A DNA stretch of 63,989 bases, the filler included, from Thelocarpon superellum (Eukaryota): the NCBI GenBank assembly GCA_026025795.1. It is 5 parts of 5 records of this genome, joined end to end, with 100 filler letters (N's around TTAATTAATTAA, not from the genome) between each part and the next. Parts side by side here need not be neighbours in the genome. Positions count along the whole stretch, not along the records: positions 13,183 to 26,229 come from JAPEUG010000466.1; 4 more parts are not named here. The stretch is one strand, 5' to 3'. Position numbers and translations under genes: made by a program. Of the stretch, positions 13,083-52,573 are shown one piece after another (within the stretch, counting starts at the first letter, position 1; each line of letters begins with the position of its first letter). The notes beneath the pieces are model-generated. The model was not told the origin of the DNA. It saw only the letters and a list, made by a program, of their open reading frames with translations, and did no database searches.

Positions 13083-13182
13083 NNNNNNNNNNNNNNNNNN
13101 NNNNNNNNNNNNNNNNNNNNNNNNNNTTAATTAATTAANNNNNNNNNNNNNNNNNNNNNNNNNNNNNNNNNNNNNNNNNNNN
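13083..13182. other. Artificial contig linker (N44-TTAATTAATTAA-N44)
   Basis: 100-nt N run with a central six-frame-stop 12-mer. Confidence 0.97.
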
Positions 13183-14845
13183 GCTGGACGCCTTGTCGAC
13201 AGGCCTCGCCAACCCGGCCGCGTCAGGTCCGGCGTGGCAGGGCATCTTCAATATTCCGGTACATTCCGCTCCTCTTCTCATCGCCCGTGGCTCGGATGCT
13301 GACTGGCGACTTAGGTTTGTGACGTCGGTGGAGCCGCAATTGCCGGGATTCCCGATGCTCAATATATCCTGATGCCGTACAATGGCTGGGAAAGCCGCCC
13401 GCACTATTGTGGGGCCATCTGCTCCAACGACGTGGCCAAGACAAAGCGCTTCGTCACGGCCGCGAATATGGATAACTTCAAGTCCCCGACCCGCTACTGT
13501 CCAAAAGACAGCTCCCAGTCCTGGATGAATTGGCGTGCGTGATCGAAGCGGCGCCTGGGGCCGCCGGAAGAGCGGGGTGAACGTGTGCTGGTCGTTGGTG
13601 GAGAGGGGAAATGGTTCCGGCGTCGCGGCAATCCCGTTTCCAATTGTCCAGTCTCTTCATTCCTTCATGTATTGATCTTTGGAGGACCATTCTCGACCGT
13701 AGATACTACATTTTATCGCGGGGGTTTGACCAGCGAGCATGGTCTCAGATGTACGGGTACTCGGTTTCGTCCCCATTCAGACACCGTCATGTGACATCCG
13801 TTGGCCCGGAGAACGCCGAGAAGAGGCTCGAGAATGTCGCCCAAGCTCGCTCGCCAGTTAAGACACAGCTAGCCCGGGCAGGACGGCGTAGCGAAGATGA
13901 CACCGCCAAGCCGGACACCCCAGGGGCGGAACCCCTAGGGGTGGAACCCCTCGCCCCAGTGTCGGCCGGCTATCACCGGTAGATGGATGACCGCAGACTC
14001 TGTGCACGCCGACCATGGCACAAGATCTCATCTCAGACGCAGTTATCCTTGCTTTGTATTACGTCGCTGGCCATGCTGCCACTGGCTGCGGCATCTCTGC
14101 GGCGCCGGTGAGTGACCACAAGTTCCCCATGCTGGTTGCACCGGTCCTTCCGCCTGTTGCACATCTGTCCGCTCCGAGTCACTGTCCGAAAGGGTCATGA
14201 TGAAGTCACGTCGGACGTTCTGCTTGATCAAGTAGGACAGCATCTCACCATCAGCCCGCGATGCGCAAGCCATCCAAGACCATCGGTCGACACCCATCAC
14301 CCCCACTCCGGGGGTTTTCACCGTGATGGAGTCAGGTCATCTGCCACTCTGACGTGTTTCTCTCGCCGCTTTGGCCGCGCTGCACGGCGAGCAGCGGGCA
14401 GCGGGCAGCAGGCAGCAGCAGGGACAAGCATGCAGCATGTCAGAACCGGTGGATGCTACCACGGATACGCTGAGCCGATGGCATGTCGGGCATGTCGGAA
14501 GACTTGTTGCAGTTGCCTGTGGCCCTCCTGGTCACACCATCCATCAGATCATGGACCGTCGTGTCCACTCTCGCTGCAACCTGCCGTATCTCGCCTGGTG
14601 GTGAGACGGCACGAAGGGGATCGAGCTGAAAGGGGACCTTCCTGAACCGCCTTGCGTCCCGTTATGAATATCATCGCCGAGCAGTCGAGCCCTGGACGCT
14701 CCTTGGGCCGTCCGCTCTTCATCTCCCACCATCCCCCTTATTTCAGGCCGCGCGATTCGTGTGTTTTCAGTCGCAACACAGATCTATTTACATCGAGCAA
14801 TCATCTACACGTGCCATTCTCATCACCACTCCGAACCTTGACACG

Positions 14846-17644
14846 ATGAAGCAGCCCGCGCACAACCTCCTGCAGGTCCTCAAGATCGCTGCGTCCGAGC
14901 CGGATGCCGGCATCACCATCTATCCGCCGGGCAGCGCGGGCAAAACCGGTGCGGAACGCCGCCTGACCTATGCCGACCTCCTAGATCGCGCGCAGGCCAA
15001 AGCGGCGCTCATCCACCAGATTGATGGCACCACCCCAGCTTCCATCATCCTTCTCCATTTCGACAACCACTGGGATAGTCTTGAGTGGTTCTGGGCGGTC
15101 GTCGCCGCCGGCTTCCTCCCGGCCATCTCCACGCCCTTTGTCAACGACCTGGACCAGCGTCGGAAGCATCTCCTTCATCTCCAGACCCTGCTGAAGGCCC
15201 CCGTGGTCCTCACGACGAAGAAGCTCGTGCCGGAATTTCTCGGTCTCGAGCAATTGAAACTGCGGCCCGTCGAGGACCTCCGCGCTTGTGAAGGTGCCGG
15301 GGTCACGGGAGGCCCAGACGGCAGCACCAAGGAACCCGACGACCGCGCCGTGCTCATGTTGACGTCGGGGAGCACGGGTCATGCCAAGGCCGTGAGTCTT
15401 CGACACGGACAGATGATCAAGGCGGTGCAAGGGAAGAGCGCCTTCCACGGCATCACGCCCGCTGACCCGTTCCTGAACTGGATCGGCTTGGATCACGTCG
15501 CCGACTTGACCGAGGTGCATTTGCAGGCCATGCAGCTGTGCGCCGACCAGGTGCACGTCCAGGCCGCCGACCTTCTGGTCGAGCCATTGATCTTCCTCCG
15601 CCTGCTCCAGAAACACCGAGTGGGCTACACCTTTGCTCCCAACTTTTTCCTGGCGGCGCTGCGACGGTGTCTGGATGAGGGCAAGGCGGCGAGCCCGGCG
15701 GCGGCCGAGTCTTTTGACCTCTCGTCTGTGAAGAAGATCATTTCCGGGGGCGAGGCAACCGTGGTCGAGACGTGCGCGGGCCTGGCGGCTCACTTTCGGG
15801 ACTTTCGGGTCCAGCAGGACATCATCAGTCCGGGATTCGGGATGACGGAAACGTGCGCCGGGTCCATCTACAACACGGCTTGCCCCACCTACGACCTAGC
15901 CCACACCTTGGAGTTTAGCTCCTTGGGTACATGCATTCCCGGCTTGACCTTACGTGTCGTCGACGGCCAAGGACAGGCGACGGCGGTCGATGAGGTGGGC
16001 GATCTGCAGCTCTCGGGTCCCATCCTCTTCCGGGAGTATTATAACAATCCGGCGGCGACGGCGGAGGCCTTCACCTCCGACGGCTGGTTCATCACCGGCG
16101 ACCGCGCCACGATTGACGCCGACGGGAACCTGAATCTGGCCGGCCGCACCAAGGAGAGCATCATCATCAACGGGGTCAAGTATTTTCCGCACGAGCTCGA
16201 GGTGGCCATCGAGGCGGCCGAGGTCCCTGGCATCACCCCCTCGTACACCGTGGTCTTCCCACACCGCCCGCGTGGCTTCCAGACCGAGGTGCTCTGCGTC
16301 GTGTACCTGCCGACGTACGAGGCGCACGACGTGGCCAGCCGGACCGAAACGGCTGATGCCATCGCCAAGGTGTCGGGTCTGATCTGCGGCGTGCGGCCGC
16401 ACGAGATCATTCCGCTGGAGCAACGATTCTTGCCCAAGTCGTCCCTCGGCAAGCTCTCGCGTGCCAAGATCCGCACCGCCTTCGAGAGCGGCGAGTACCA
16501 GACCATTCAAGATGCAAACCACCAGGCCATCCAGGCGTACCGTCGCGCGCGGCGCGAGAAACCCGGCAGCGAGCTCGAACAGACGGTGCTCAGCGTGTTT
16601 GGCGACATGTTCCAGCTGCCGGCCGACGAGATCGGCGTCGACAGCAGCCTCTTTGATCTCGGGGTCAGCTCGATCGACCTCATCAGCTTCAAGCAACGGC
16701 TGGAGAAGCGGCTGGGGCTGACGACGGAGATACCACTGATCACGGTCTTGACCCACCCGACGATCCGCGGCATGAGCCAGGCGTTGGAGGACCTGCAGAA
16801 GCCGCACGAGTACAGCCCGGTGGTGCCGCTCCAGACGCGCGGCGACAAGACGCCGCTGTGGATGGTGCATCCGGGCGTGGGCGAGGTGCTGGTCTTCCTC
16901 AACCTGGCCAAATACGTGACGGACCGTCCCATCTACGCGCTTCGGGCGCGCGGCTTCGACGAGGGCGAGGCCTTCTTCAAGGACATCCCCGACGTGGTCG
17001 AGACCTACCACGCGCACATGAAGCGGGTCCAGCCCACGGGGCCGTACGCCATCGCCGGCTATTCCTTTGGCGCGATGCTGGCCTTTGAGGTGAGCAAGCG
17101 GCTGGAGCGCCAGGGCGACGAGGTGAAGTTCCTGGGCTCCTTCAACCTGCCACCGCACATCAAATATCGCATGCAGCAGCTTGACTGGACCGAGGTGGTG
17201 CTCAACCTGTCCTACTTCTTGGATCTCATCTCGGAGGAGTACGCGCACGAGGTGTCGGCGGAGATGCATCGACGGACGCCGGAAGAGGTGCTGGACCACC
17301 TCATGCGCCTGGCGCCGCCGGCGCGGCTGGAGGAGCTGTCGTTGACCAAGCAGAAGCTGTCGACGTGGGCTTCGCTCGCGGAGAATCTGCAGGCGGCGGC
17401 GCGCAACTACGACCCCTCGGGCTCGGTCGCGTGCATCGACGTCTTCTTCGCCATCCCGCTCAAGGCGGTGGCGAAGAACAAGCAGGACTGGGTGCAGAAC
17501 TACCTCAGCAAGTGGAAGGACTTCTCCCGCTCCGCCCCGCGCTACCACGAGGTCAATGGGGCGCACTACACGATGATGGGCCCCGAACACATTCTCTCCT
17601 TTCAGAAGAAGTTGAAGGCCGTCTTGCACGAGCGGGGGTTGTAG
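14846..17644 (+). CDS. NRPS-like A-T-TE arylpyruvate-dimerising synthetase, quinone-synthetase type (atromentin/polyporic acid synthetase-like)
   Basis: Intronless, 932 aa from ATG 14846. A domain: LTSGSTGHAK, WIGLDHVA (Val in place of the amino-binding Asp), GFGMTETCAG, WFITGD, LPKSSLGK. T domain: FDLGVSSIDL. TE domain: GYSFG, GSFNLPPH, GAHYTM. No C domain. Confidence 0.93.
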   Translation: MKQPAHNLLQVLKIAASEPDAGITIYPPGSAGKTGAERRLTYADLLDRAQAKAALIHQIDGTTPASIILLHFDNHWDSLEWFWAVVAAGFLPAISTPFVNDLDQRRKHLLHLQTLLKAPVVLTTKKLVPEFLGLEQLKLRPVEDLRACEGAGVTGGPDGSTKEPDDRAVLMLTSGSTGHAKAVSLRHGQMIKAVQGKSAFHGITPADPFLNWIGLDHVADLTEVHLQAMQLCADQVHVQAADLLVEPLIFLRLLQKHRVGYTFAPNFFLAALRRCLDEGKAASPAAAESFDLSSVKKIISGGEATVVETCAGLAAHFRDFRVQQDIISPGFGMTETCAGSIYNTACPTYDLAHTLEFSSLGTCIPGLTLRVVDGQGQATAVDEVGDLQLSGPILFREYYNNPAATAEAFTSDGWFITGDRATIDADGNLNLAGRTKESIIINGVKYFPHELEVAIEAAEVPGITPSYTVVFPHRPRGFQTEVLCVVYLPTYEAHDVASRTETADAIAKVSGLICGVRPHEIIPLEQRFLPKSSLGKLSRAKIRTAFESGEYQTIQDANHQAIQAYRRARREKPGSELEQTVLSVFGDMFQLPADEIGVDSSLFDLGVSSIDLISFKQRLEKRLGLTTEIPLITVLTHPTIRGMSQALEDLQKPHEYSPVVPLQTRGDKTPLWMVHPGVGEVLVFLNLAKYVTDRPIYALRARGFDEGEAFFKDIPDVVETYHAHMKRVQPTGPYAIAGYSFGAMLAFEVSKRLERQGDEVKFLGSFNLPPHIKYRMQQLDWTEVVLNLSYFLDLISEEYAHEVSAEMHRRTPEEVLDHLMRLAPPARLEELSLTKQKLSTWASLAENLQAAARNYDPSGSVACIDVFFAIPLKAVAKNKQDWVQNYLSKWKDFSRSAPRYHEVNGAHYTMMGPEHILSFQKKLKAVLHERGL

Positions 17645-19130
17645 GCCAGGCGTCTGAGGAGATCCGACATGCGCGCTCGTCTGCGGCCAACCTTTCTTCC
17701 TCCTCGCCCCTCGTTTTGTGACCACTGCCGTCCACTGGCACTTTCCTTTTCAGAAATAGATTCGCCGTACACGTACACGTGCGCCCTGCGCCATCTCCAA
17801 TTAGACTTTGCCCGTCGAGCCTGGCTCACAATCCGGTGCGGGGGGTGACATCTCCATGGCTCACGGTGATGGGTGGTGGGCGTAGCTCCATCTACGCGGT
17901 GGAAGATGCCGCCCGTAGCCGCACAGCCGCCGACGTGAGACCTCCTGATCCACGACACACGAGAGTGGCAGCGACTCGTGGCGGAGGCAGCAGAGACAGC
18001 CTGGCTGGCACGAGATGACGAGGCCCTGCATGAGGCTGGCGGGCTCTCATCCCGTTGGTGCCACGAGGTGCAGCTTGGCGTGAGACCCGGGCGCTTCCAG
18101 ACGCATCATCCGTCCTTTCGGCCCCTCTCGACCTCACCACTAGCGATGATGGTATCACGCGAATCTCATCTCGACCCGGCGAGCCACCGATGCCTCATGC
18201 ATCATGTACCATGCAGGCCACGATGCCCACGCCGCTCAGCCGATCTGCGGCGGCATGGTCCCGGGCCTGATCGTCGTCGTCGGCGTCATGGTGGTGGTAA
18301 GAGCGTCGGGGGCCGAGCTGAAAGAGTGCCTTGACGTCCAGCGCCGCCCACGGGTGCATCGGGCTCAGGGGCCAAGCCGCTTTACGTTGCACAAGAAGAC
18401 AGATTGAGGTCCTTATCAGGTCACCAAGATGGATTCCGTGCAGGAACCCGTGGGAGTCCCGGTCCTGCCATCGTCGTACCCCGGGCACGTTGACGGAGGC
18501 TTCGGCGCTCCTCGGAAGCCACACGCTCTGGTCTGACTCATGTCCGTTGGCCTGACTCTCTCGAAGTCCACGAGGAGGATGAGATTCATCAGCACGCGGC
18601 GAATCTCACCGCTGCCACATTCTCTACGGGGCCGGTATCCTGCCTGCTCCTGTCATCGCGTCATGGATGGCGATGGACGAGATGTCCGTGCTCGGACGTG
18701 ACGTGCAAGCTGGCGCTCGAGGCGTCGTGGTCCTCCCCCTTTGGTTCGCTCGACAAGACATCTCTCGGTGCAAATGTCCTGAAAGGGCACCGTCCACGCA
18801 TCCACCATTGCCGTGTGAGTGCGAGGTTGCACCGGTGGCTGAGGACGTCTCGCTCAGCCCTGATGGCTCCTTTTCCCACTGACGTCAAGACGGAGCAGGC
18901 TGTGGCATTCACGCGCGGTTCTCCGGTGATGAGATTGCGTCTCTTCCTCTTCTCTCCCGCCACTATATGGCTAGCGCTCGTCCGGCCTGGTGAAGATGCA
19001 ATGGCTTCATGTCTTACTCCTGTCACTTGCTAGTCGCCGCACCTCGTGGACGAAGATATTTTCGATCTCGATCAACTCGAGAGAATCCGACGCCCTTGTT
19101 CCCGAACCCCTTCCCCTCCAATTGCCCACC

Positions 19131-21786
19131 ATGCTGTTCTTCGCGCTTCCCACGCTCACGATGCTGCCCTTCGTGCTGATCATCCTGGCGGTCACGTCGG
19201 CCCGTGGCGATACGCTGACGCAACAGGCCACAAACGGTGATTGCCCTCTGTCGTACGACTTGACCTTTTTGGACACTCACCCATTACCCTGGCGCTAGGT
19301 CTCTCCTTGCTCGGAACGCTGAATGCCTCGACGCTGCCGCAGTCGCTCAATGCGGGTAGTGTACGTTACCCGTCCTGAGCTTCTCGAATGGCGCCTAATC
19401 CACCTGGCAGTCTTTCCCCGTCGCCTTTCCTTGGGGACAAGCCACGGCGTCCAACACGAATCCCTCTACCGACGCGCCCAATACCGGTGGGTGGCGGCAG
19501 CCGGCTGGCTCTGGCAGTCAACGCTGATCTTGCAAAAGGTGTGATTCGCAAGTATGATTTCACCATCTCCCGGGGTCAATTGGCCCCGGATGGGTATCTG
19601 AAGGACGTTGTTCTCATCAATGGAATGTATCCGGGGGTGAGTGATGTTGTTCGTCAAGCGATGTCCAGGTATCCAGGCACTGATTGGTTCCAGCCTCTCA
19701 TCGAAGCCAATTGGGGCGATACCATTCAAGTGACCGTTCACAACAACATCTCCGCACCGCAAGAAGGCACTTCTCTCCACTGGTATGGCCCACTGATCTT
19801 ATTGTGGCCGAAAACGCACTAATCAGAACAGGCACGGGTGGGTTCTAGGACGAGGCGGCAGCATTGGGCGTCGACTGACGCTGTCCAGGTTCCTCCAGTC
19901 GGAGACTCCGTGGTATGATGGCGTCCCCTCGGTACAGCAGTGCCCGATCGCTCCCGGGTCGAGCTTCACCTATAAGTTTCGCGCCGAGCTGTATGGAACG
20001 ACGTGGTAGGCAAGTCGGACGACTTGGTCAGGACGACGGTTGACCCAGGCTGCTAGGTATCACTCGCACTACTCAGCACAGGTAGGACGCATCTTCTCAT
20101 GAGATCGAATCCATCTAATGATTCTAGTATGCGGCAGGCGTCAACGGGCGTATGTATCGGGAGTCGAACATGTTTGGTCAGGTACTCACAATGGACAGCT
20201 TTGATCGTCTATGGACCAACGCAGGTTCCATACGACACTGACCTGGGTCCCGTGTTCATCAATGACTGGTACCACGAGTGCGTTGAGAGGCTCCTCGAGG
20301 GAATGCGAATAGTAACAGCGGAACAGAGACTATTTTGATTTGGTCAAGCTGGTCACGCAGATCGGCGGGAGCCTGACCATTGTGCGTCTACCGTTCCATT
20401 CATCATCCGACCTAACTCCATGTGTAGCCTACGCCGCTTGCGCCCAACTCGGACAACAACTTGATCAACGGGAAGATGAATTTCAGCTGCCCGTCGGTCA
20501 CGGATGGCACGCCCTGTCTGTGATCTCTCCTTTCTCACTTAACGCACGTCTGACCCATGCGACAGGCACGAACAACGCCCCGCTATCGAAGTTCAAGTTT
20601 CAGAGTGGCAAGACTCATCGACTGCGATTGATCAACTCTGGGGCCGAGGGGATCCAAAAGTTTAGCATCGATAACCACACGCTGACGGTGATCTCCAACG
20701 ACTTTGTGCCGATCCAACCGTACAACACCAAGATTGTGACCTTGGGGGTGGGTGGATACACGCGTGCACATCTGATGGAAGAGAGGGACTGACACGCGCA
20801 GATTGGCCAACGCGTTGACATCATCGTCAAAGCCACGGGGAAGCCCACCGATGCCGTGTGGATGCGTTCGTTCATCACGGCCTGCGCAACAGCGAACCAG
20901 CCTCTGGCCTTGGCCGAAGTGTTCTACGAGAAGGCCAACATGACTGATACTCCGAAGACTACGGCATGGAACGACACGACCGACCCATGCGCGAACGTGA
21001 GTTCCACCACCCGTCTCATGGCCGCTCCGTCGCATCTCTTCCAAGGCCCATCTGACATCCATCCGATGCAGGACCCGCTCAACGAGACCGTGCCCGTGTA
21101 CCCCATGACGCCAGACCCCCACCCCGCCACGACACAGGTCATCACCATCTCCGGCGGGTTCAACTCGTCGGATCACTTCAACTTCTTCATGAACAACGTG
21201 ACCTTCCGCGCGGACTACAACCAGCCGATCCTCGGCCTCTCGCAAGCGGGCAACGACAGCTATCCCTACGACCCCAACTGGAATGTGTACGACTTTGGCA
21301 GCAATAAGACGATTCGCTTTATCGTCTACAACAACTTCCCGGCGGCACATCCAATGCATATGCACGGGCATAACATGTACATCCTGGCCACGGGGCCGGG
21401 GCTGTCGTGGGACGGCACGGTGACGAATCCTTCGAACCCGCTGCGTCGCGACGTGCAGATGCTCCCGGCCTTTTCCCACATGGTCGTGCAGATTGATGCG
21501 GACAATCCAGGCGTCTGGCCGTTTCATTGCCACATTGCCTGGCATGTTTCGCAGGGACTGTACATCAACATCCTGGTGGGTCACATCTGGCATCTGGCAT
21601 CTGCCTTCCATCATTTGCCTTTGCATGAGCGAAGAGCGCGAACGACTGACGCACATCGGTACTTAGGAACGGCCGCGCGACATCCAGAAATACACGCCCA
21701 TTCCCGGCGTCTTGAAGCAGACGTGTAAAGCATGGAATGCCTTTTCGGCCACGGGCTATGATGGGGAGATTGATTCAGGGTTGTGA
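19131..21786 (+). CDS. Secreted multicopper oxidase / ascomycete laccase (AA1), ~15 introns
   Basis: Signal peptide [21 protein letters not shown]. Copper motifs HWHG (split by a 6-nt exon), [18 protein letters not shown] and [15 protein letters not shown]. Ends in the ascomycete laccase signature DSGL* (TGA 21784-21786). Confidence 0.92.
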
Positions 21787-24057
21787 ATGGAGAGTGACAT
21801 TGCGGGCAGACTGCTACTAGACTGACTGAACTGGGGGAAGTGTGATGAAGAGCGAACTGAACAACCACGACACCTGTCACCACGGAGCAAAAAGGAGACG
21901 TGACAAATAGACCGATATGACATTACATGAGAGTGAGAATGGGGAAGACGAAGAGGAAGACCGTAAACCTGTCTAGGTCACCGCCTTTCCAGTACTCCAG
22001 TACAAGGGGTCGAATCACGAGATGGGGTAGTTGGAAGGGGCGACAATCCCGCTACGGGTCACGTGGGACGGATGCCTCAAGCAGTAGAGTATCGCAGGTC
22101 AAGACGGCATGGCTCTCTTCAAGACTGGCGCTTTTCTCCTCTTCCGCATGAGTCACGACAGACGAGCGAGGAGAAAAGAGCCCGGTGGTCCGACGGGAAA
22201 CTAGTCCAATGAAATTCCCTGACACACATTATAGTAACAACCAGTCGGGAGAGGAACAGAAGGGGGCGGACTCGCATCCGAGAAGAGGAAGGTAACAACC
22301 TGTCGAGTCGAACATGTCTTGAACTTCCGTCCTGTGCCGTACTGTACTGTATCCAAGGTACGACGCAACGCGACGAAGTAGTCACAAAGGTCGCGCGTGT
22401 GTTTTCTTCTCGTGTTCATGTTCGTATCCACCACGCCCCGCCCCGTGTCGTATCGTGCTAACTAGTTGCTTAGGTAGTGCTCGTGTAAGCGACGGGGCAT
22501 GGAGTGACGAGTCCCGTCTTGTCTTCCTCGAAGAAGGGCCGGAGGAAGGAGTGTTGGGGGCATGACGGACGGGACGGGACGGGCGATGGTAGAATAACTC
22601 CAGTACGACACTGATGGCACGATGGCACGAGCAAGGACAGGGAGGGGAGGGGAGGGCAGACACAGCGTCGGTCAGTCATGGTGTCACGGTAGTAGCTGGG
22701 CGATGATAGGTGAATCTGCGGCTGCGTCGTACTCCTCGTCTACGTATGAGAGGAGGTGAGCTCTTCCGGTCGTACAACGTAGAGACCGAGTGGTCTCGAA
22801 ACGAAGTCACAGAAGTCACACAGGATATGCTTTACCCCCGTCAGACAACTTCAAGAAGCAAGGCCAGCAGTGGTACCCCCCACCCTCTCCTGACCCGGCC
22901 CCACAGCGCCCGAACCTTTTGGCGGCTGATCCTCCCCTTTTCGTGCATATCAGATACATAATCCATCGTCATCGTCGTCGTCGTTGTCACCATTGTTGGA
23001 TGCACCATGGTTTCCTGTATCTTACTGGCACTAACAGTCCTTCATAAGATACGTGACGTATCGTCGGACGTATTGCTGCACCCGCACGCGCCTCTTCCTC
23101 TCCGCGGACCTTCATCACACATAGACATTCATCCAGATGCGAGAGACAGACGTACTGTGCCTATCCGCAAGGGACTTGCATACGTCACGACCGACCCACT
23201 TACCCACCTACCCACCCATACACTATGCGGTACTCCAACTCAGTCGTACTCCTCGTTACCTCGAGCTTGTGTCACGGTCTTTCCCCCGGTTCTTGGATGG
23301 TATCCTCATCCGTGGCTGGATCATGTACTCGTCCGCCGATTGAACCGAGACTTGTCCTCGCACGCGTAACCATAGGCGTATCAGCCAGCATCATGAACCG
23401 GGCGAAAAGGACTGAAAGGAGGGGACGACGATTGGTTGAAGATTGATCCAGAACGTCCCCCACCAGATCGTCCATCTTCCTCTTCCCCCCCACCCCCCTG
23501 TCGTGGATCATGATCGGCGTCAAGCACGACCCCTGGATTCGGACGAAGGCCTTGTCGGAGCAGTCGGCCTCCGACCTATACCCCACGAACACGATACTTG
23601 CCAAGGAAAGAGAAAGGAGGTAAGAGACATGGCACAGTTCTCTCTGGTGCTCCCGCTCTGTGGCCGCTGTCTGCCTTCCGTCGTCCGTCGTCCGTATTTG
23701 TCCGCGGCCCGTCCCCCACTGCCAGTGTTCCGTCCGTAGCAGTCCGGGTCCGTCGTCCGTGGCCCCGACTCCGACTCCGTTGCCGACGCCGGTGCCGGCC
23801 GAGGGGGTAAATGCCACGCCGCGGGGTAGTATAGACGAGGGGGGGAAACCTTGGCTTCCAATCAGGGCAATGATCTCATGATCAAACCGCTTGAACCTTG
23901 AACCTTGGATTGAAGATATATAGAACCATAGATAGATCACTAACATCACTCACCACCGTGATCCATCCTCGAGTGCCAACGAGTTCAACCCATCGCTTCG
24001 TGCCAGTCGCAACAGCTGATATCTTCAGACCAAATTTCTTCACGAATCCCTCCCACC

Positions 24058-24943
24058 ATGGCCGAATCGGACAAGAAGGACGTGGCGTGGTATCAAGCCG
24101 AGATCGGCGGTATCCCTGCGCCCGTGCGCAAGCTCTTCGAGACGTACAGCGGCATCGCGCCGGACCGCGTCGAGCCTCACATCTTGGAAGTGGTAGGTGG
24201 CATGGCTCCCTTTCGGGAGCACAATGACGAGGACATCAGACTGATCTGATCTACCACAGCGTGACCGGGCCTGGAAGGTCTGGCCCTATCCCTGCATCGG
24301 GCTCTTCCGCTTCCTCGATCTCGGCATCAGTGAGTCGCAGTCGTATCCGGAGATCATCGACCGCCTCAAGCATGGCGAGTGCCTGCTCGACCTGGGATGC
24401 TGCTTCGGCCAGGAAATCCGCAAGCTGGTGGCCGATGGCGCGCCGTCCGAAAACACCTATGGCGCCGACCTCCACGGCGAATTCATCGAGGCCGGATACG
24501 ACCTGTTCCAGGACAAGGGCAAGCTGAAGACCAAGTTCCTGACGGCCGACATCCTGGACCCGTCCTCGGCCTTCACGCAGCTGGATGGGAAGCTAGACAT
24601 GATCTGGGTCGGGTCCTTCCTGCACCTCTTCGGCTGGGACGACCAGGTCAACGTGGCGACGCGCCTCGTCCAGCTGCTCCGGACTCGCAAGGGATCCGTG
24701 GTATTCGGACGCCAGGCCGGCAATATCACGCCCGGCGAGATCCCGCATTCCGCCAATGCCGGCGGCACCATGTACCGTCATGATCCGGCCAGCTTCGAGA
24801 AACTGTGGCAGGAGGTGGGCAAGGTCACCGGCACCAAGTGGAACGTCAAGGCCCGTCTGGAGGAGATCAAGGAGGGTCCCAAGGGCGGCGCCTGGAATGA
24901 CCCCAACGCTCGTCTCCTCCTCTTTGCCGTCCATCGGGAATGA
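24058..24943 (+). CDS. Class I SAM-dependent methyltransferase, AusD/Trt5/AdrK-like family
   Basis: One intron (24193-24259). The spliced protein has RDRAWKVWPYPCIGLFRFLDL, SAM motif LLDLGCCFGQEIRKLVADG, GSFLHLFGWDDQ and YRHDPASFEKLW. Confidence 0.88.
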
Positions 24944-25444
24944 CGGCTCGACTGAACCACGGGCACCGACTTGGAAGAAGCTTTCGGTCTGGTCGAGTCC
25001 ACGGAAGGCACCGCTGGATCAGTAGCTCCATAGCTAGTCCGCAGAACCATGGTCTTCACTCAGAGTCCTGATAGAAGGTCACAAGCAGTGAAAATGAGAG
25101 GATCGACTTGGTTAGGATTCCGCATGTTCAGAGTTCCTCCGTTCCTTGCCGAGTGATCTGTGAGATGGTTAGGGGCAAGTATCAGACTTCTGGTGAAGTC
25201 CCGGCGGGATAGATCGAGCGCTAAGAAAGACCCAATTTTGCGGCGTGACTACTGGCGCCCCCCAGCGAGTCGAGACCGGATGCCGTCAGGGGAAAGCAGA
25301 AGGTGTAGGAATCAGGGCTGAATTGCTAATCTACGCGTAGTCTGGGATAGTAATAGGAGTGGGCACGTGACCAGACCACGTGCGCGCTCCTACAAAGGTA
25401 TAATTCGTCCGTTCCCCGCCTACGGGGAAGAACCGATCGCTTAC

Positions 25445-25481
25445 CTTCATCTTCATCTTCATCTTCATCTCCATCTCCATC
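25445..25481. repeat. (CTTCAT/CTCCAT)n hexanucleotide microsatellite
   Basis: cttcatcttcatcttcatcttcatctccatctccat is seen directly. Confidence 0.8.
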
Positions 25482-25913
25482 CGCATCTGTGGTCTGATGC
25501 TCGGTTTGAATACTGACACGTCAACTCCTACAGGTCGCTGGCTGATGACATTTCGCCAACGACCACACGGCTGATCAAGCCCGATCACGTGGATGATGTT
25601 GGCCCACGTCGGTTATGTGGAAGACGAGTAGCATCATGGCCACGAGTACTGCTATTTACGACCTACTACGCCTACTAGGTGTAGTAATAGTAAATTTGTA
25701 ATCATAGCAATAGTGCTGCTTATAGCAATAGCGAAGTGTTGTCAGTGAGGGGTCGGCGGTCGAGACTGAGATTCGCAATGCACTTGATCAACACCCGTCC
25801 AACACCCGTCAAACACTCCACTCATCAGCCACGCGGGCTTTTGACAACTCTGTACTGGTCAAAGACTAATGGCGTCTTGCTGGAACCTCCCTTCGAGGAC
25901 CCTTTCGTGCGAA

Positions 25914-26077
25914 TGGACGGCGAGACAGCGGAGCTGGTTCTGGCGCTGCAAAAGCAGGACTTAGAGGAGCTTCTCGTACTCATAAAGGCAAAAGAGAAGG
26001 CAGGTCCTGTGCCAGATTCTCAGCTCTCAATGCAGCTCTACCGCGACGAACTGCACCACGGCGAGACCGTCCTCTGA
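25914..26077 (+). pseudogene. Possible truncated N-terminal fragment of a fungal IBR/RBR-type E3 ligase
   Basis: MDGETAELVLALQKQDLEEL..KAKEKAGPVPDSQLSMQLYRDEL resembles the helical N-terminus of fungal IBR-finger proteins. It stops after 54 codons near the contig end. Confidence 0.35.
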
Positions 26078-26229
26078 TATAAAACGGGATGGGTTAGTTT
26101 CAGGACCAGAATCGGGATCTGTACAGGGCCGGTTAAGAGGTGGGAACAAGGAGAGGCTTACTGTAGGAATCGGGCACAGGACCAGCGCGCCACGCTAGCC
26201 AAAGGACACAGCCTCCTTGAAGGAGGCGT

Positions 26230-26329
26230 NNNNNNNNNNNNNNNNNNNNNNNNNNNNNNNNNNNNNNNNNNNNTTAATTAATTAANNNNNNNNNNNNNNN
26301 NNNNNNNNNNNNNNNNNNNNNNNNNNNNN
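26230..26329. other. Artificial contig linker
   Basis: Same N44-TTAATTAATTAA-N44 structure. Confidence 0.97.
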
Positions 26330-39363: not shown

Positions 39364-39463
39364 NNNNNNNNNNNNNNNNNNNNNNNNNNNNNNNNNNNNN
39401 NNNNNNNTTAATTAATTAANNNNNNNNNNNNNNNNNNNNNNNNNNNNNNNNNNNNNNNNNNNN
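39364..39463. other. Artificial contig linker
   Basis: Same N44-TTAATTAATTAA-N44 structure. Confidence 0.97.
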
Positions 39464-52473: not shown

Positions 52474-52573
52474 NNNNNNNNNNNNNNNNNNNNNNNNNNN
52501 NNNNNNNNNNNNNNNNNTTAATTAATTAANNNNNNNNNNNNNNNNNNNNNNNNNNNNNNNNNNNNNNNNNNNN
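52474..52573. other. Artificial contig linker
   Basis: Same N44-TTAATTAATTAA-N44 structure. Confidence 0.97.

Follow-up and report, generated by a model that had tools for sequence, protein, structure and literature searches.

The TE domains of NRPS-like enzymes with the domain order adenylation–thiolation–thioesterase (A-T-TE) can yield quinones, furanones or dioxolanones (PMC8403587). AcyN of Ascocoryne sarcoides is such a non-reducing enzyme and makes polyporic acid from phenylpyruvate; in the ascocorynin cluster it is co-expressed with the neighbouring genes for a transcription factor and a DAHP synthase, tailoring is by an unlinked monooxygenase, and there is neither a laccase nor a methyltransferase (PMC9047271). 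In the alf cluster for allantofuranone of Allantophomopsis lycopodina, a polyporic acid synthetase is followed by methylation and an oxidative conversion of the six-membered ring to a furanone; according to the excerpt, this one solved ring contraction of polyporic acid is due to a ring-cleavage dioxygenase acting after reduction and O-methylation, and the same source calls the biosynthesis of variegatic acid, involutin and thelephoric acid enigmatic (PMC12105029). The basidiomycete loci AtrA, InvA, NPS3, CorA, HapA and PpaA1 also encode A-T-TE quinone synthetases, which feed the pulvinic pigments of mushrooms, and the passages of the source that cover them describe no laccase partner and give the enzymes leading from atromentin or polyporic acid to pulvinic acid as not identified (PMC10316625). 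In Aspergillus terreus, the A-T-TE enzyme BtyA is encoded adjacent to the methyltransferase BtyB of about 271 aa (PMC8433890, PMC4274970), and the BtyA product is butyrolactone IIa, formed in a pathway for which the excerpt names no laccase (PMC8433890). Methyltransferases of the NvfJ type from dimethylorsellinic acid (DMOA) meroterpenoid pathways are small class-I SAM enzymes whose characterised members methylate carboxyl groups, and their substrates are terpenoid-polyketide acids of PKS/terpene clusters (PMC6030086).

The window analysed here, a stretch of 63,989 nucleotides from Thelocarpon superellum, consists of five pieces of about 13 kb with a spacer, N44-TTAATTAATTAA-N44, between each, and the second piece (13183-26229, 13,047 bp) bears genes for a synthetase, a laccase and a methyltransferase, all intact (Table 1). 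Like AcyN, the synthetase is an A-T-TE enzyme, but its neighbours are unlike those of the ascocorynin cluster. The proposed route resembles that of the alf cluster, whereas here a laccase is the sole oxidase, and methylation would fall to a 272-aa protein of the NvfJ/Trt5 type. With BtyA/BtyB the locus shares the combination of an NRPS-like enzyme and a small methyltransferase, BtyB being comparable by size and pairing alone, and the ring type of butyrolactone IIa differs from the terphenylquinone proposed below. In contrast to the NvfJ-type systems, the partner is NRPS-like, and an aryl-pyruvate dimer would be the substrate. The product of BtyB is a methyl ester, and Trt5, AusD and AdrK are methyltransferases of DMOA meroterpenoid pathways. 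In Asp-melanin formation by A. terreus, the NRPS-like MelA and its copper-oxidase partner TyrP together give a pigment, a pairing like that of the window, but the oxidase there is a tyrosinase polymerising aspulvinone E, and the window has a three-domain laccase and a methyltransferase.

Table 1. Features of the second piece, in window coordinates.
Feature	Position	Strand	Evidence or remark
NRPS-like synthetase gene, single exon, 932 aa + stop	14846..17644	+	open frame; Pfam order A-T-TE
Adenylation domain, aa 18-399	14897..16042	+	PF00501 (AMP-binding), E 3.5e-39
Thiolation (carrier) domain, aa 579-647	16580..16786	+	PF00550 (PP-binding), E 1.1e-12
Thioesterase domain, aa 670-919	16853..17602	+	PF00975, E 1.2e-29; GYSFG (Ser 740), GAH (His 907)
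Laccase (multicopper oxidase) gene, 16 exons, 607 aa + stop	19131..21786	+	hand-built model, 15 GT-AG introns
Laccase exons 1-8	19131-19236, 19299-19360, 19411-19486, 19539-19636, 19694-19782, 19832-19837, 19889-20005, 20057-20081	+	
6-nt microexon	19832..19837	+	flanking introns 49 and 51 nt; encodes the second His of HWHG
Laccase exons 9-16	20128-20149, 20199-20277, 20327-20381, 20428-20515, 20566-20747, 20802-20996, 21072-21575, 21667-21786	+	
Methyltransferase gene, 2 exons, 272 aa	24058..24943	+	Pfam Methyltransf_25/12/11 matches
Methyltransferase exon 1, 45 aa	24058..24192	+	aligns with N-terminus of T. impressellum P0123
Methyltransferase exon 2, 227 aa + stop	24260..24943	+	Methyltransf_25, E 2.7e-07; SAM-binding motif LLDLGCCFGQ
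Upstream flank to contig end	13183..14845	.	13 ORFs scanned, 0 Pfam matches, no recognisable gene
Downstream flank to contig end	24944..26229	.	no Pfam match, no recognisable gene

Open frames and domain matches agree with the positions and common orientation given in an earlier note on this DNA, and Pfam domains uphold its three family assignments (A-T-TE NRPS-like enzyme, laccase, SAM methyltransferase). That these are the sole recognisable genes on the contig holds at the sensitivity of Pfam, as five flank ORFs and 31 more ORFs of 45-167 aa from flanks and spacers gave no match at E<=0.1; the best Atlas score in the downstream flank was 0.88, under the evidence level of the tool, and the search for tRNA and Rfam families gave no match on the piece. 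The downstream flank contains an ORF at 25694-26077 and a tandem repeat, CTTCAT x6. A promoter comparison revealed no common motif above chance expectation. The contig end, placed about 1.7 kb upstream of the synthetase by the same note, lies 1,663 bp before the ATG. The absence of an aminotransferase gene from the contig is no obstacle, because such genes are often unlinked (PMC8403587).

The synthetase is 100% identical to a stored 932-aa protein (P0002), and the Pfam scan found no condensation domain in it. P0003 of T. impressellum is 73% identical to it, and AcyN (P0051), the sole characterised name among the 120 matches listed, 58%, so that by sequence the polyporic acid synthetase AcyN is its closest characterised relative within this set. 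The TE is the best conserved domain, with 64% identity to AcyN (A 56%, T 55%) and 84% to T. impressellum. In the motif ISGGEA of the adenylation domain, I299 aligns with the same Ile in AcyN, a column that we take to be GrsA residue 299, position 5 of the NRPS code. According to the excerpted source, Ile or Val in that column goes with phenylpyruvate and polyporic acid synthetases, and Asn with 4-hydroxyphenylpyruvate and atromentin synthetases (PMC10316625). The earlier suggestion of a terphenylquinone-type enzyme thus agrees with its nearest characterised relative and with the common Ile, from which a product of this class may be proposed. In the synthetase tree, the window protein falls into a clade of four rows (SH-aLRT 100), sister to Caeruleum, Sclerophora and Candelariaceae (89), and in the midpoint-rooted tree AcyN lies across the root in a different major clade.

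The hand-built laccase model is letter-for-letter identical to the public 607-aa protein P0242 (Thelocarpon superellum MAG, M1838_004201), and therefore the microexon is also present in the public model; both introns flanking it have GT..AG ends and branch-point-like sequences (CTAAT/CTGAC). Pfam detects three cupredoxin domains in the protein (Cu-oxidase_3, Cu-oxidase, Cu-oxidase_2), and none of the four copper motifs is missing (HWHG 143, HSH 187, HMH 496, HCH 552). With a hydrophobic N-terminus (mean Kyte-Doolittle 2.18, residues 2-23), 11 N-x-S/T sequons and DSGL at its C-terminus, it looks secreted and glycosylated.

Over its full length, the methyltransferase aligns with P0123, its orthologue in T. 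impressellum, and the identities of exon 2 are 81% (P0122) and 77% (P0123). Homologues number 283 at E<=0.001, and PF27593, named NvfJ_N in the Atlas, is present in 111 of the 120 matches listed, including the 77% orthologue. NvfJ and other DMOA pathway methyltransferases form methyl esters (PMC6030086). The assignment to the AusD/Trt5/AdrK-type family made earlier is borne out by these relatives, and the protein belongs with the NvfJ/Trt5-type formers of carboxyl methyl esters; on a substrate made by this locus, it may likewise form an ester. Among the 120 matches listed, orthologues of at least 77% identity occur only in T. impressellum and one other genome, the next match has 62%, and none is from Letharia. 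Identity is thus 77-81% where the methyltransferase shares a contig with the synthetase, and 62% outside such genomes.

The three genes are found together elsewhere. In T. impressellum, synthetase (KAI9827478, 73%), laccase (KAI9827479, M1832_004829) and methyltransferase (KAI9827480, M1832_004830, 77%) are consecutive and in the same order on one contig of 489,193 bp. Synthetase and laccase share a contig in Caeruleum heppii (KAI9676977 and KAI9676974; 801,228 bp), in Candelaria pacifica (KAI9720165 and KAI9720162; 358,883 bp) and in a further record (P0006 and P0363; 19,155 bp), and lie apart in Candelina mexicana, on contigs of 10,946 and 1,432,528 bp. The pair is thus linked in five of the six genomes or records holding both orthologues, across Thelocarpales, Caeruleum and Candelariomycetes. 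The six laccases of the linked type form one clade (UFBoot 94 / SH-aLRT 96) apart from paralogues of the same genomes, with unlinked Thelocarpon paralogues as its sister, and the groupings of the laccase and synthetase trees match. Its conservation elsewhere shows that the grouping of the three genes is more than chance, and the trio is a real conserved cluster. The earlier note had proposed examining linkage across fungal genomes and especially in pulvinate-producing lichens; the former shows synteny of the trio and linkage of the pair as described, and for the latter the pair is linked in Candelaria pacifica. Among the 120 laccase matches listed, of 512 at E<=0.001, a laccase of the linked clade was not seen in Pseudocyphellaria aurata or Pleopsidium, nor in Pycnora, Watsoniomyces or Lobaria immixta; the Sclerophora laccase among them falls outside the clade, on a contig other than that of the synthetase.

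Synthetase orthologues were found in Pleopsidium, Candelaria and Pseudocyphellaria, lichens with pulvinic derivatives: rhizocarpic acid is present in Pleopsidium and calycin in Candelaria, and the excerpted record for Pseudocyphellaria lists calycin and pulvinic dilactone. Thelocarpon contains pulvinic derivatives, and a yellow pruina has been described for it. Our literature search found no report of pulvinic chemistry in Thelocarpon, no published lichen pulvinate gene cluster and no precedent for the opening of a terphenylquinone ring by a laccase.

We tentatively propose, at somewhat less than an even chance, that the trio is a small conserved secondary-metabolite cluster for a yellow pigment of the pulvinic acid type made from phenylpyruvate. 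The A domain would activate phenylpyruvate from primary metabolism and load it onto the T domain, as the domains and the Ile common to AcyN suggest, and the TE, by analogy with AcyN, would join two units to the terphenylquinone polyporic acid. The laccase would then oxidise polyporic acid, with two electrons and two protons passing to O2, and the oxidised quinone would rearrange, with the ring opening to pulvinic dilactone, to which addition of water would give pulvinic acid. Polyporic acid is C18H12O4 and pulvinic dilactone C18H10O4, and chemical oxidation of the one to the other is known. Because the dilactone is polyporic acid minus 2 H, an oxidase would suffice without oxygen insertion, and it is this stoichiometry together with the chemical precedent that suggests ring opening by the laccase. 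Finally, the NvfJ/Trt5-type methyltransferase may esterify the carboxyl group of pulvinic acid to vulpinic acid; alternatively, the vinylogous-acid hydroxyl of polyporic acid may be methylated earlier in the cytosol, so that ring opening would give the ester. If methylation is the last step, there is a compartment problem, as the laccase would be secreted and the SAM enzyme cytosolic. Points against the pulvinic reading include the identity to AcyN of only 58%, its position across the midpoint root, the use of a dioxygenase in the one solved ring contraction of polyporic acid, and the unlinked pair of Candelina mexicana. A route from polyporic acid to a pulvinic/vulpinic-type product is nevertheless the best reading, in which product class, ring opening by the laccase and methyl ester formation are inferred.

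The oxidative step could have another outcome. Polyporic acid or a close relative would be made by a real cluster, but the laccase would couple, polymerise or oxidise it to a different, e.g. darker, pigment, and any pulvinic acids would come from an unlinked enzyme or form spontaneously. We regard this as unlikely, though deserving serious attention. A laccase of the linked type is found in Caeruleum heppii too, a species not known to be yellow, and the 120 matches listed contain none of this type from P. aurata or Pleopsidium, both of which produce pulvinates. Moreover, laccases of fungal clusters usually couple or polymerise phenolics, e.g. the DHN-melanin cluster laccase (PMC8403587), and according to the excerpt the conidial pigment of A. 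terreus needs the NRPS-like gene atmelA, the mutant being albino (PMC4274970). However, polyporic acid from phenylpyruvate has no phenolic aryl hydroxyl for typical coupling, and Candelariaceae, which have pulvinic derivatives, share the linked laccase clade. Furthermore, formation of pulvinic dilactone from polyporic acid amounts to exactly a two-electron oxidation.

Distinctly improbable, in our view, is that the synthetase directly makes an acid of the furanone or butyrolactone type, as BtyA does, which a BtyB-like methyltransferase would esterify and the laccase tailor later, bypassing a terphenylquinone. The polyporic acid route is reportedly that of lichen pulvinic derivatives in the tracer work of Maass and Neish and of Mosbach in the 1960s. 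AcyN appears among the 120 synthetase matches listed, and no characterised furanone former, such as BtyA, ApvA or MelA, is among them; the 64% identity of the TE to AcyN points the same way. Nevertheless, the window synthetase belongs to a clade separate from that of AcyN, the ring type is set by the TE and is unreadable from sequence here (PMC8403587), and the excerpted source establishes the BtyA/BtyB pairing, with a BtyB homologue of 271 aa, for butyrolactone II (PMC8433890). That the genes are neighbours by descent only, with unrelated housekeeping or stress roles for the laccase and the methyltransferase, is very improbable: both families are large and common, no shared promoter motif was found, and T. 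superellum and T. impressellum belong to one genus, which makes conservation of the trio between them weak evidence by itself, but against this stand the linkage kept across three lineages, the dedicated laccase clade, the matching trees and the drop in methyltransferase identity outside genomes with the synthetase on the same contig.

With the pulvinic/vulpinic-type product as the preferred reading, the trio would be a candidate, open to experiment, for the genes that underlie the yellow pulvinic and vulpinic acid pigments of lichens.

The synthetase, laccase and methyltransferase genes (see the table) lie intact and co-oriented within 10 kb on the + strand of piece 2 (13183-26229, 13,047 bp), and they are indeed its only recognizable genes, as the earlier note had stated, with Pfam domains in all members of the trio and none in 5 flank ORFs and 31 further ORFs from the flanks and spacers of this piece. 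The distance of 1.7 kb between the synthetase and the contig end, also taken from that note, is correct. No transcription factor or transporter was detected on the 13-kb contig in the Pfam scan of ORFs, an ORF at the 3' end (25772-26077) received only Atlas scores of at most 0.88, and no tRNA or Rfam match was obtained on piece 2. The 800-bp regions upstream of all three genes share k-mers of 7-10 nt no more often than shuffled sequences do (8-mers: 1 observed vs 0.82 expected). Only three short tandem repeats were found on piece 2; CTTCAT x6 (25445-25488) and a 15-nt unit x2.7 (13912-13951), which lie in its flanks, have no obvious role. The window as a whole is not one locus, but five pieces of about 13 kb with spacers of the form N44-TTAATTAATTAA-N44, and what the remaining four contain are housekeeping genes without a part in the cluster (Vps53, GH18 chitinase, RabGAP-TBC, DENN, SPT16, mitochondrial carrier, RING, F-box).

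Positions of the three cluster genes and of the spacers within the window
Feature	Position	Strand	Structure
Synthetase	14846-17644	+	single open frame, 932 aa
Laccase	19131-21786	+	16 exons, 607 aa; model from three-frame translations
Methyltransferase	24058-24192 + 24260-24943	+	two exons, 272 aa
Spacers	13083-13182, 26230-26329, 39364-39463, 52474-52573		

The synthetase has Pfam matches to PF00501 (residues 18-399), PF00550 (579-647) and PF00975 (670-919), and neither a condensation nor a reductase domain was found with Pfam. Its TE domain contains the GxSxG nucleophile motif as GYSFG (738-742) and the C-terminal histidine in GAH (905-907); the aspartate of the triad was not located. AcyN from Ascocoryne sarcoides is the only characterized name among the 120 matches listed (out of 1371 that reached E<=0.001 when 7999 candidates were scored), with 58% identity overall and 56%, 55% and 64% in the A, T and TE domains, respectively. 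A valine at position 1 of the NRPS code is a marker of alpha-keto acid activation. Ile299 in the motif ISGGEA is the same as the AcyN isoleucine in the alignment, and by comparison with AcyN and with the GrsA motif this column is tentatively assigned to code position 5 (GrsA 299). In a PDB search with the A domain, McyG (4r0m), not GrsA, was the nearest solved structure. The polyporic acid synthetases taken for comparison are AcyN, AlfA, CorA, HapA1/2 and PpaA1. According to PMC10316625, position 5 is aliphatic (Ile/Val) in polyporic acid synthetases and Asn in atromentin synthetases, and this residue relaxes or contributes to specificity without fixing it. The published numbering of the residue, Ile298 in CorA and Val302 in PpaA1 (PMC10316625), agrees with Ile299 of the window protein. 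It is the TE domain alone that sets whether a quinone, furanone or dioxolanone ring is formed (PMC8403587). AcyN has been demonstrated to produce polyporic acid from phenylpyruvate (PMC9047271), and in a quick tree of 42 rows, AcyN and the window synthetase clade fall on opposite sides of the midpoint root. We therefore make no firm call on polyporic acid as the possible product, as it is suggested by similarity to AcyN only and the clade differs.

Some orthologous synthetases are much longer (1266-1377 aa). In the protein P0014 from Pseudocyphellaria aurata, about 450 aa of low complexity, with PNG-like units that recur, are inserted inside the A domain (residues ~148-606), and P0012, P0013, P0015 and P0017 likewise carry an insert of about 450 aa; a short Gly-rich loop is all that the window protein has at this site. 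The insert may be genuine, or it may stem from an intron left unspliced in the annotation. Fusion of a neighbouring gene was considered as the source of the added length in the P. aurata protein (1377 aa) and rejected, as the extra residues are of low complexity, lie within the A domain and give no methyltransferase match.

The laccase model contains 15 introns of 46-91 nt, all of them GT-AG, and in the homology search it was identical to a public protein (P0242, MAG hypothetical protein M1838_004201 of Thelocarpon superellum). Pfam recognizes Cu-oxidase_3, Cu-oxidase and Cu-oxidase_2, corresponding to three cupredoxin domains, and all four copper motifs are present (HWHG at 143, HSH at 187, HPMHMHGH around 496, and HCHIAWH at 552); the ascorbase and laccase models of NCBIfam matched below their cut-offs. 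The N-terminus is hydrophobic (mean Kyte-Doolittle 2.18), there are 11 N-glycosylation sequons, and the protein ends with EIDSGL. A C-terminal DSGL plug is a hallmark of ascomycete laccases, and together these features, including the putative secretory N-terminus, indicate a three-domain laccase of the ascomycete type. Two details of the gene structure deserve mention. A microexon of only 6 nt (19832-19837), which sits between a 49-nt and a 51-nt intron, encodes the second copper-ligand histidine of HWHG, and skipping it gives HWYG and thus the look of a dead enzyme. Intron 14 (20997-21071) spans 75 nt, keeps the reading frame and contains no stop codon, and the region therefore reads as one ORF (20793-21728), so that a naive ORF call would insert 25 spurious residues.

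The methyltransferase aligns along its whole length with the T. impressellum orthologue, the motif LDLGCCFGQ is conserved in the alignment, and residues 48-146 of exon 2 match Methyltransf_25/12/11 in Pfam, which represents a class-I SAM-binding core. The proposed assignment to the AusD/Trt5/AdrK-type family is supported, because the homologues carry the domain PF27593, named NvfJ_N in the Atlas, and NvfJ and the methyltransferases of other DMOA (dimethylorsellinic acid) meroterpenoid pathways convert carboxyl groups to methyl esters (PMC6030086). In precomputed annotations, PF27593 is carried by 111 of the 120 listed homologues, including the 77% orthologue P0123 of T. impressellum, and it is present in 33-94% of the members of the nearest Atlas clusters. 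A local Pfam scan of exon 2 gave no PF27593 match, and the N-terminus of the window protein aligns with PF27593-bearing homologues. Based on its family, the enzyme is predicted to methylate a carboxyl group. A PDB search yielded no solved structure for the family, NCBIfam gave nothing useful, and a match to the structure of OspA (E 0.006) was spurious. Among the 120 listed homologues, the highest identities are 81% and 77%, followed by 62% (Lasallia), and in both genomes with the two closest proteins, methyltransferase and synthetase genes lie on the same contig. This drop in identity beyond the synthetase-linked genomes fits a lineage-specific recruitment of the methyltransferase. The C-terminal 75% of exon 2 is matched at 99% identity by P0124, a 171-aa protein from a 1,250-bp contig, which may stem from another assembly of this genome or of one very close to it.

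In relatives, conserved linkage, a check asked for by the earlier note, was found; genes were taken to share a contig on the basis of equal contig sizes and near-consecutive accessions. The whole trio is kept in T. impressellum, where synthetase (KAI9827478, 73%), laccase (KAI9827479, M1832_004829) and methyltransferase (KAI9827480, M1832_004830, 77%) follow one another in accession number on a single 489,193-bp contig, in the same order as in the window. The synthetase-laccase pair is linked in five of six genomes or records in which both genes were found, including Caeruleum heppii (KAI9676977 and KAI9676974, 801,228-bp contig), Candelaria pacifica (KAI9720165 and KAI9720162, 358,883-bp contig), and a 19,155-bp contig with the synthetase P0006 and the laccase P0363. 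In Candelina mexicana, the linkage is broken, with the synthetase and laccase orthologues on contigs of 10,946 bp and 1,432,528 bp, respectively. In a further genome, a 3,181,020-bp contig carries both a synthetase (72%) and a methyltransferase (81%); this methyltransferase, P0122, starts at exon 2, and the proteins of this genome look ORF-called, so that a 16-exon laccase is not detectable there. Judged by this adjacency across genomes, the grouping of the trio is more than chance. In Caeruleum and Candelaria, the accessions are three apart, and therefore two genes lie between laccase and synthetase. The series KAI9676974-77 and KAI9720162-65 suggest a conserved four-gene block, whose two middle genes are absent from the Thelocarpon arrangement.

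The gene trees agree with this linkage. A careful ML tree of 26 laccases unites the six proteins of the linked type in one clade (UFBoot 94 / SH-aLRT 96), which is sister to unlinked paralogues of the same Thelocarpon genomes, and the same clade was recovered in a quick tree of 46 rows (SH-aLRT 80). In the quick synthetase tree of 42 rows, the window protein groups with that of T. impressellum and two other proteins (SH-aLRT 100), and this group is sister (89) to proteins of Caeruleum, Sclerophora and Candelariaceae. In the NCBI taxonomy, Thelocarpon belongs to Thelocarpales, which is incertae sedis within leotiomyceta, and the lineages present in both trees fall into Thelocarpales, incertae sedis and Candelariomycetes. 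The two trees thus agree in indicating matching histories of laccase and synthetase across these lineages. Three or more distantly related lineages of lichen fungi have kept the locus. No member of the linked laccase clade from P. aurata or Pleopsidium was seen among the 120 listed of 512 laccase matches, which is weak evidence because the search was word-limited.

What could the three enzymes make together? Polyporic acid is C18H12O4 and pulvinic dilactone is C18H10O4, a difference of two hydrogens, and therefore no oxygen insertion is needed to get from the one to the other; chemical oxidants convert polyporic acid to pulvinic dilactone, and a terphenylquinone origin of pulvinic acids was already proposed decades ago. 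In our model, the synthetase would dimerize phenylpyruvate to polyporic acid, the laccase would withdraw two electrons from it to give pulvinic dilactone, pulvinic acid would arise from the latter by ring opening with water, and its methyl ester, vulpinic acid, would be the product of the methyltransferase. In another possible order, the vinylogous-acid hydroxyl of polyporic acid would be methylated first, and ring opening would then yield the ester directly, which is attractive because the laccase looks secreted and a SAM-dependent enzyme should be cytosolic. We infer this whole mechanism, including the chemistry of its steps. No precedent for a laccase acting from terphenylquinone to pulvinate was found in the literature searched, and a dioxygenase is responsible for the one ring contraction of polyporic acid that has been solved (PMC12105029). 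The reading that leads from polyporic acid to pulvinate is the best available, and we would give it somewhat less than an even chance. The interpretation as a terphenylquinone-to-vulpinic-acid pigment cluster thus held in part: the cluster is real and conserved and the enzyme families are as proposed, and we infer the product, the role of the laccase and the ester step from them. A more far-reaching scenario, which we regard as rather unlikely, is that the linked laccases are the missing enzymes from terphenylquinones to pulvinic acids, acting by two-electron oxidation without an oxygenase, that the synthetase-laccase pair is an ancient unit, passed on vertically, that underlies the yellow pulvinates of Thelocarpon and Candelariaceae, and that the NvfJ-type methyltransferase was added in Thelocarpon and leads to vulpinic acid.

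Synthetase orthologues with 62-69% identity are found in Candelaria, Candelina, a cluster with Pleopsidium flavum, and Pseudocyphellaria aurata. Rhizocarpic acid has been reported for Pleopsidium and calycin for Candelaria, and counts of literature terms associate Pseudocyphellaria with calycin and pulvinic dilactone. Orthologues also occur in Caeruleum, Watsoniomyces, Pycnora and Lobaria immixta, for which, to our knowledge, no pulvinate-type pigments are known. Thelocarpon contains pulvinic derivatives; in the literature searched, no account of its pulvinic or vulpinic chemistry was found, only a remark on yellow pruina. For Letharia, which is rich in vulpinic acid, no protein was among the listed methyltransferase or synthetase matches (120 each), and of ten clusters checked for this genus, one was named, for Peltigera leucophlebia only.

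With respect to known systems, a cluster built around an NRPS-like enzyme is a known type, but the tailoring pair of this one, a laccase and an NvfJ-type methyltransferase, is found in none of the characterized clusters compared (acy, alf, bty, tdi, ucd and ric). The product of BtyB is a methyl ester. A functional precedent for the partnership with a methyltransferase is given in the biosynthesis of butyrolactone II by the NRPS-like BtyA and the adjacent BtyB, of which a homologue has 271 aa (PMC8433890). PMC12105029, from 2025, calls the biosynthesis of involutin, thelephoric acid and variegatic acid still enigmatic, and states that no ring-contraction enzyme had been reported for NRPS-like products before AlfB. 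We found neither a lichen pulvinate cluster nor a quinone-to-pulvinate enzyme in the literature searched, and a published cluster may exist in subscription journals or bioRxiv supplements.

The locus is compact, one of its genes is intronless, and it yields a concrete hypothesis that can be read out by simple mass differences. Vulpinic acid, calycin, rhizocarpic acid and the variegatic acid of mushrooms are pulvinic derivatives, and they are classic pigments and toxins. If the more far-reaching scenario is true, the cluster would provide the first genetic basis of the pulvinic acid pigments of lichens and the first enzyme for the conversion of a terphenylquinone to a pulvinic acid in any fungus. 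The cluster would also help to explain which partner of yellow lichens makes the pulvinic compounds.
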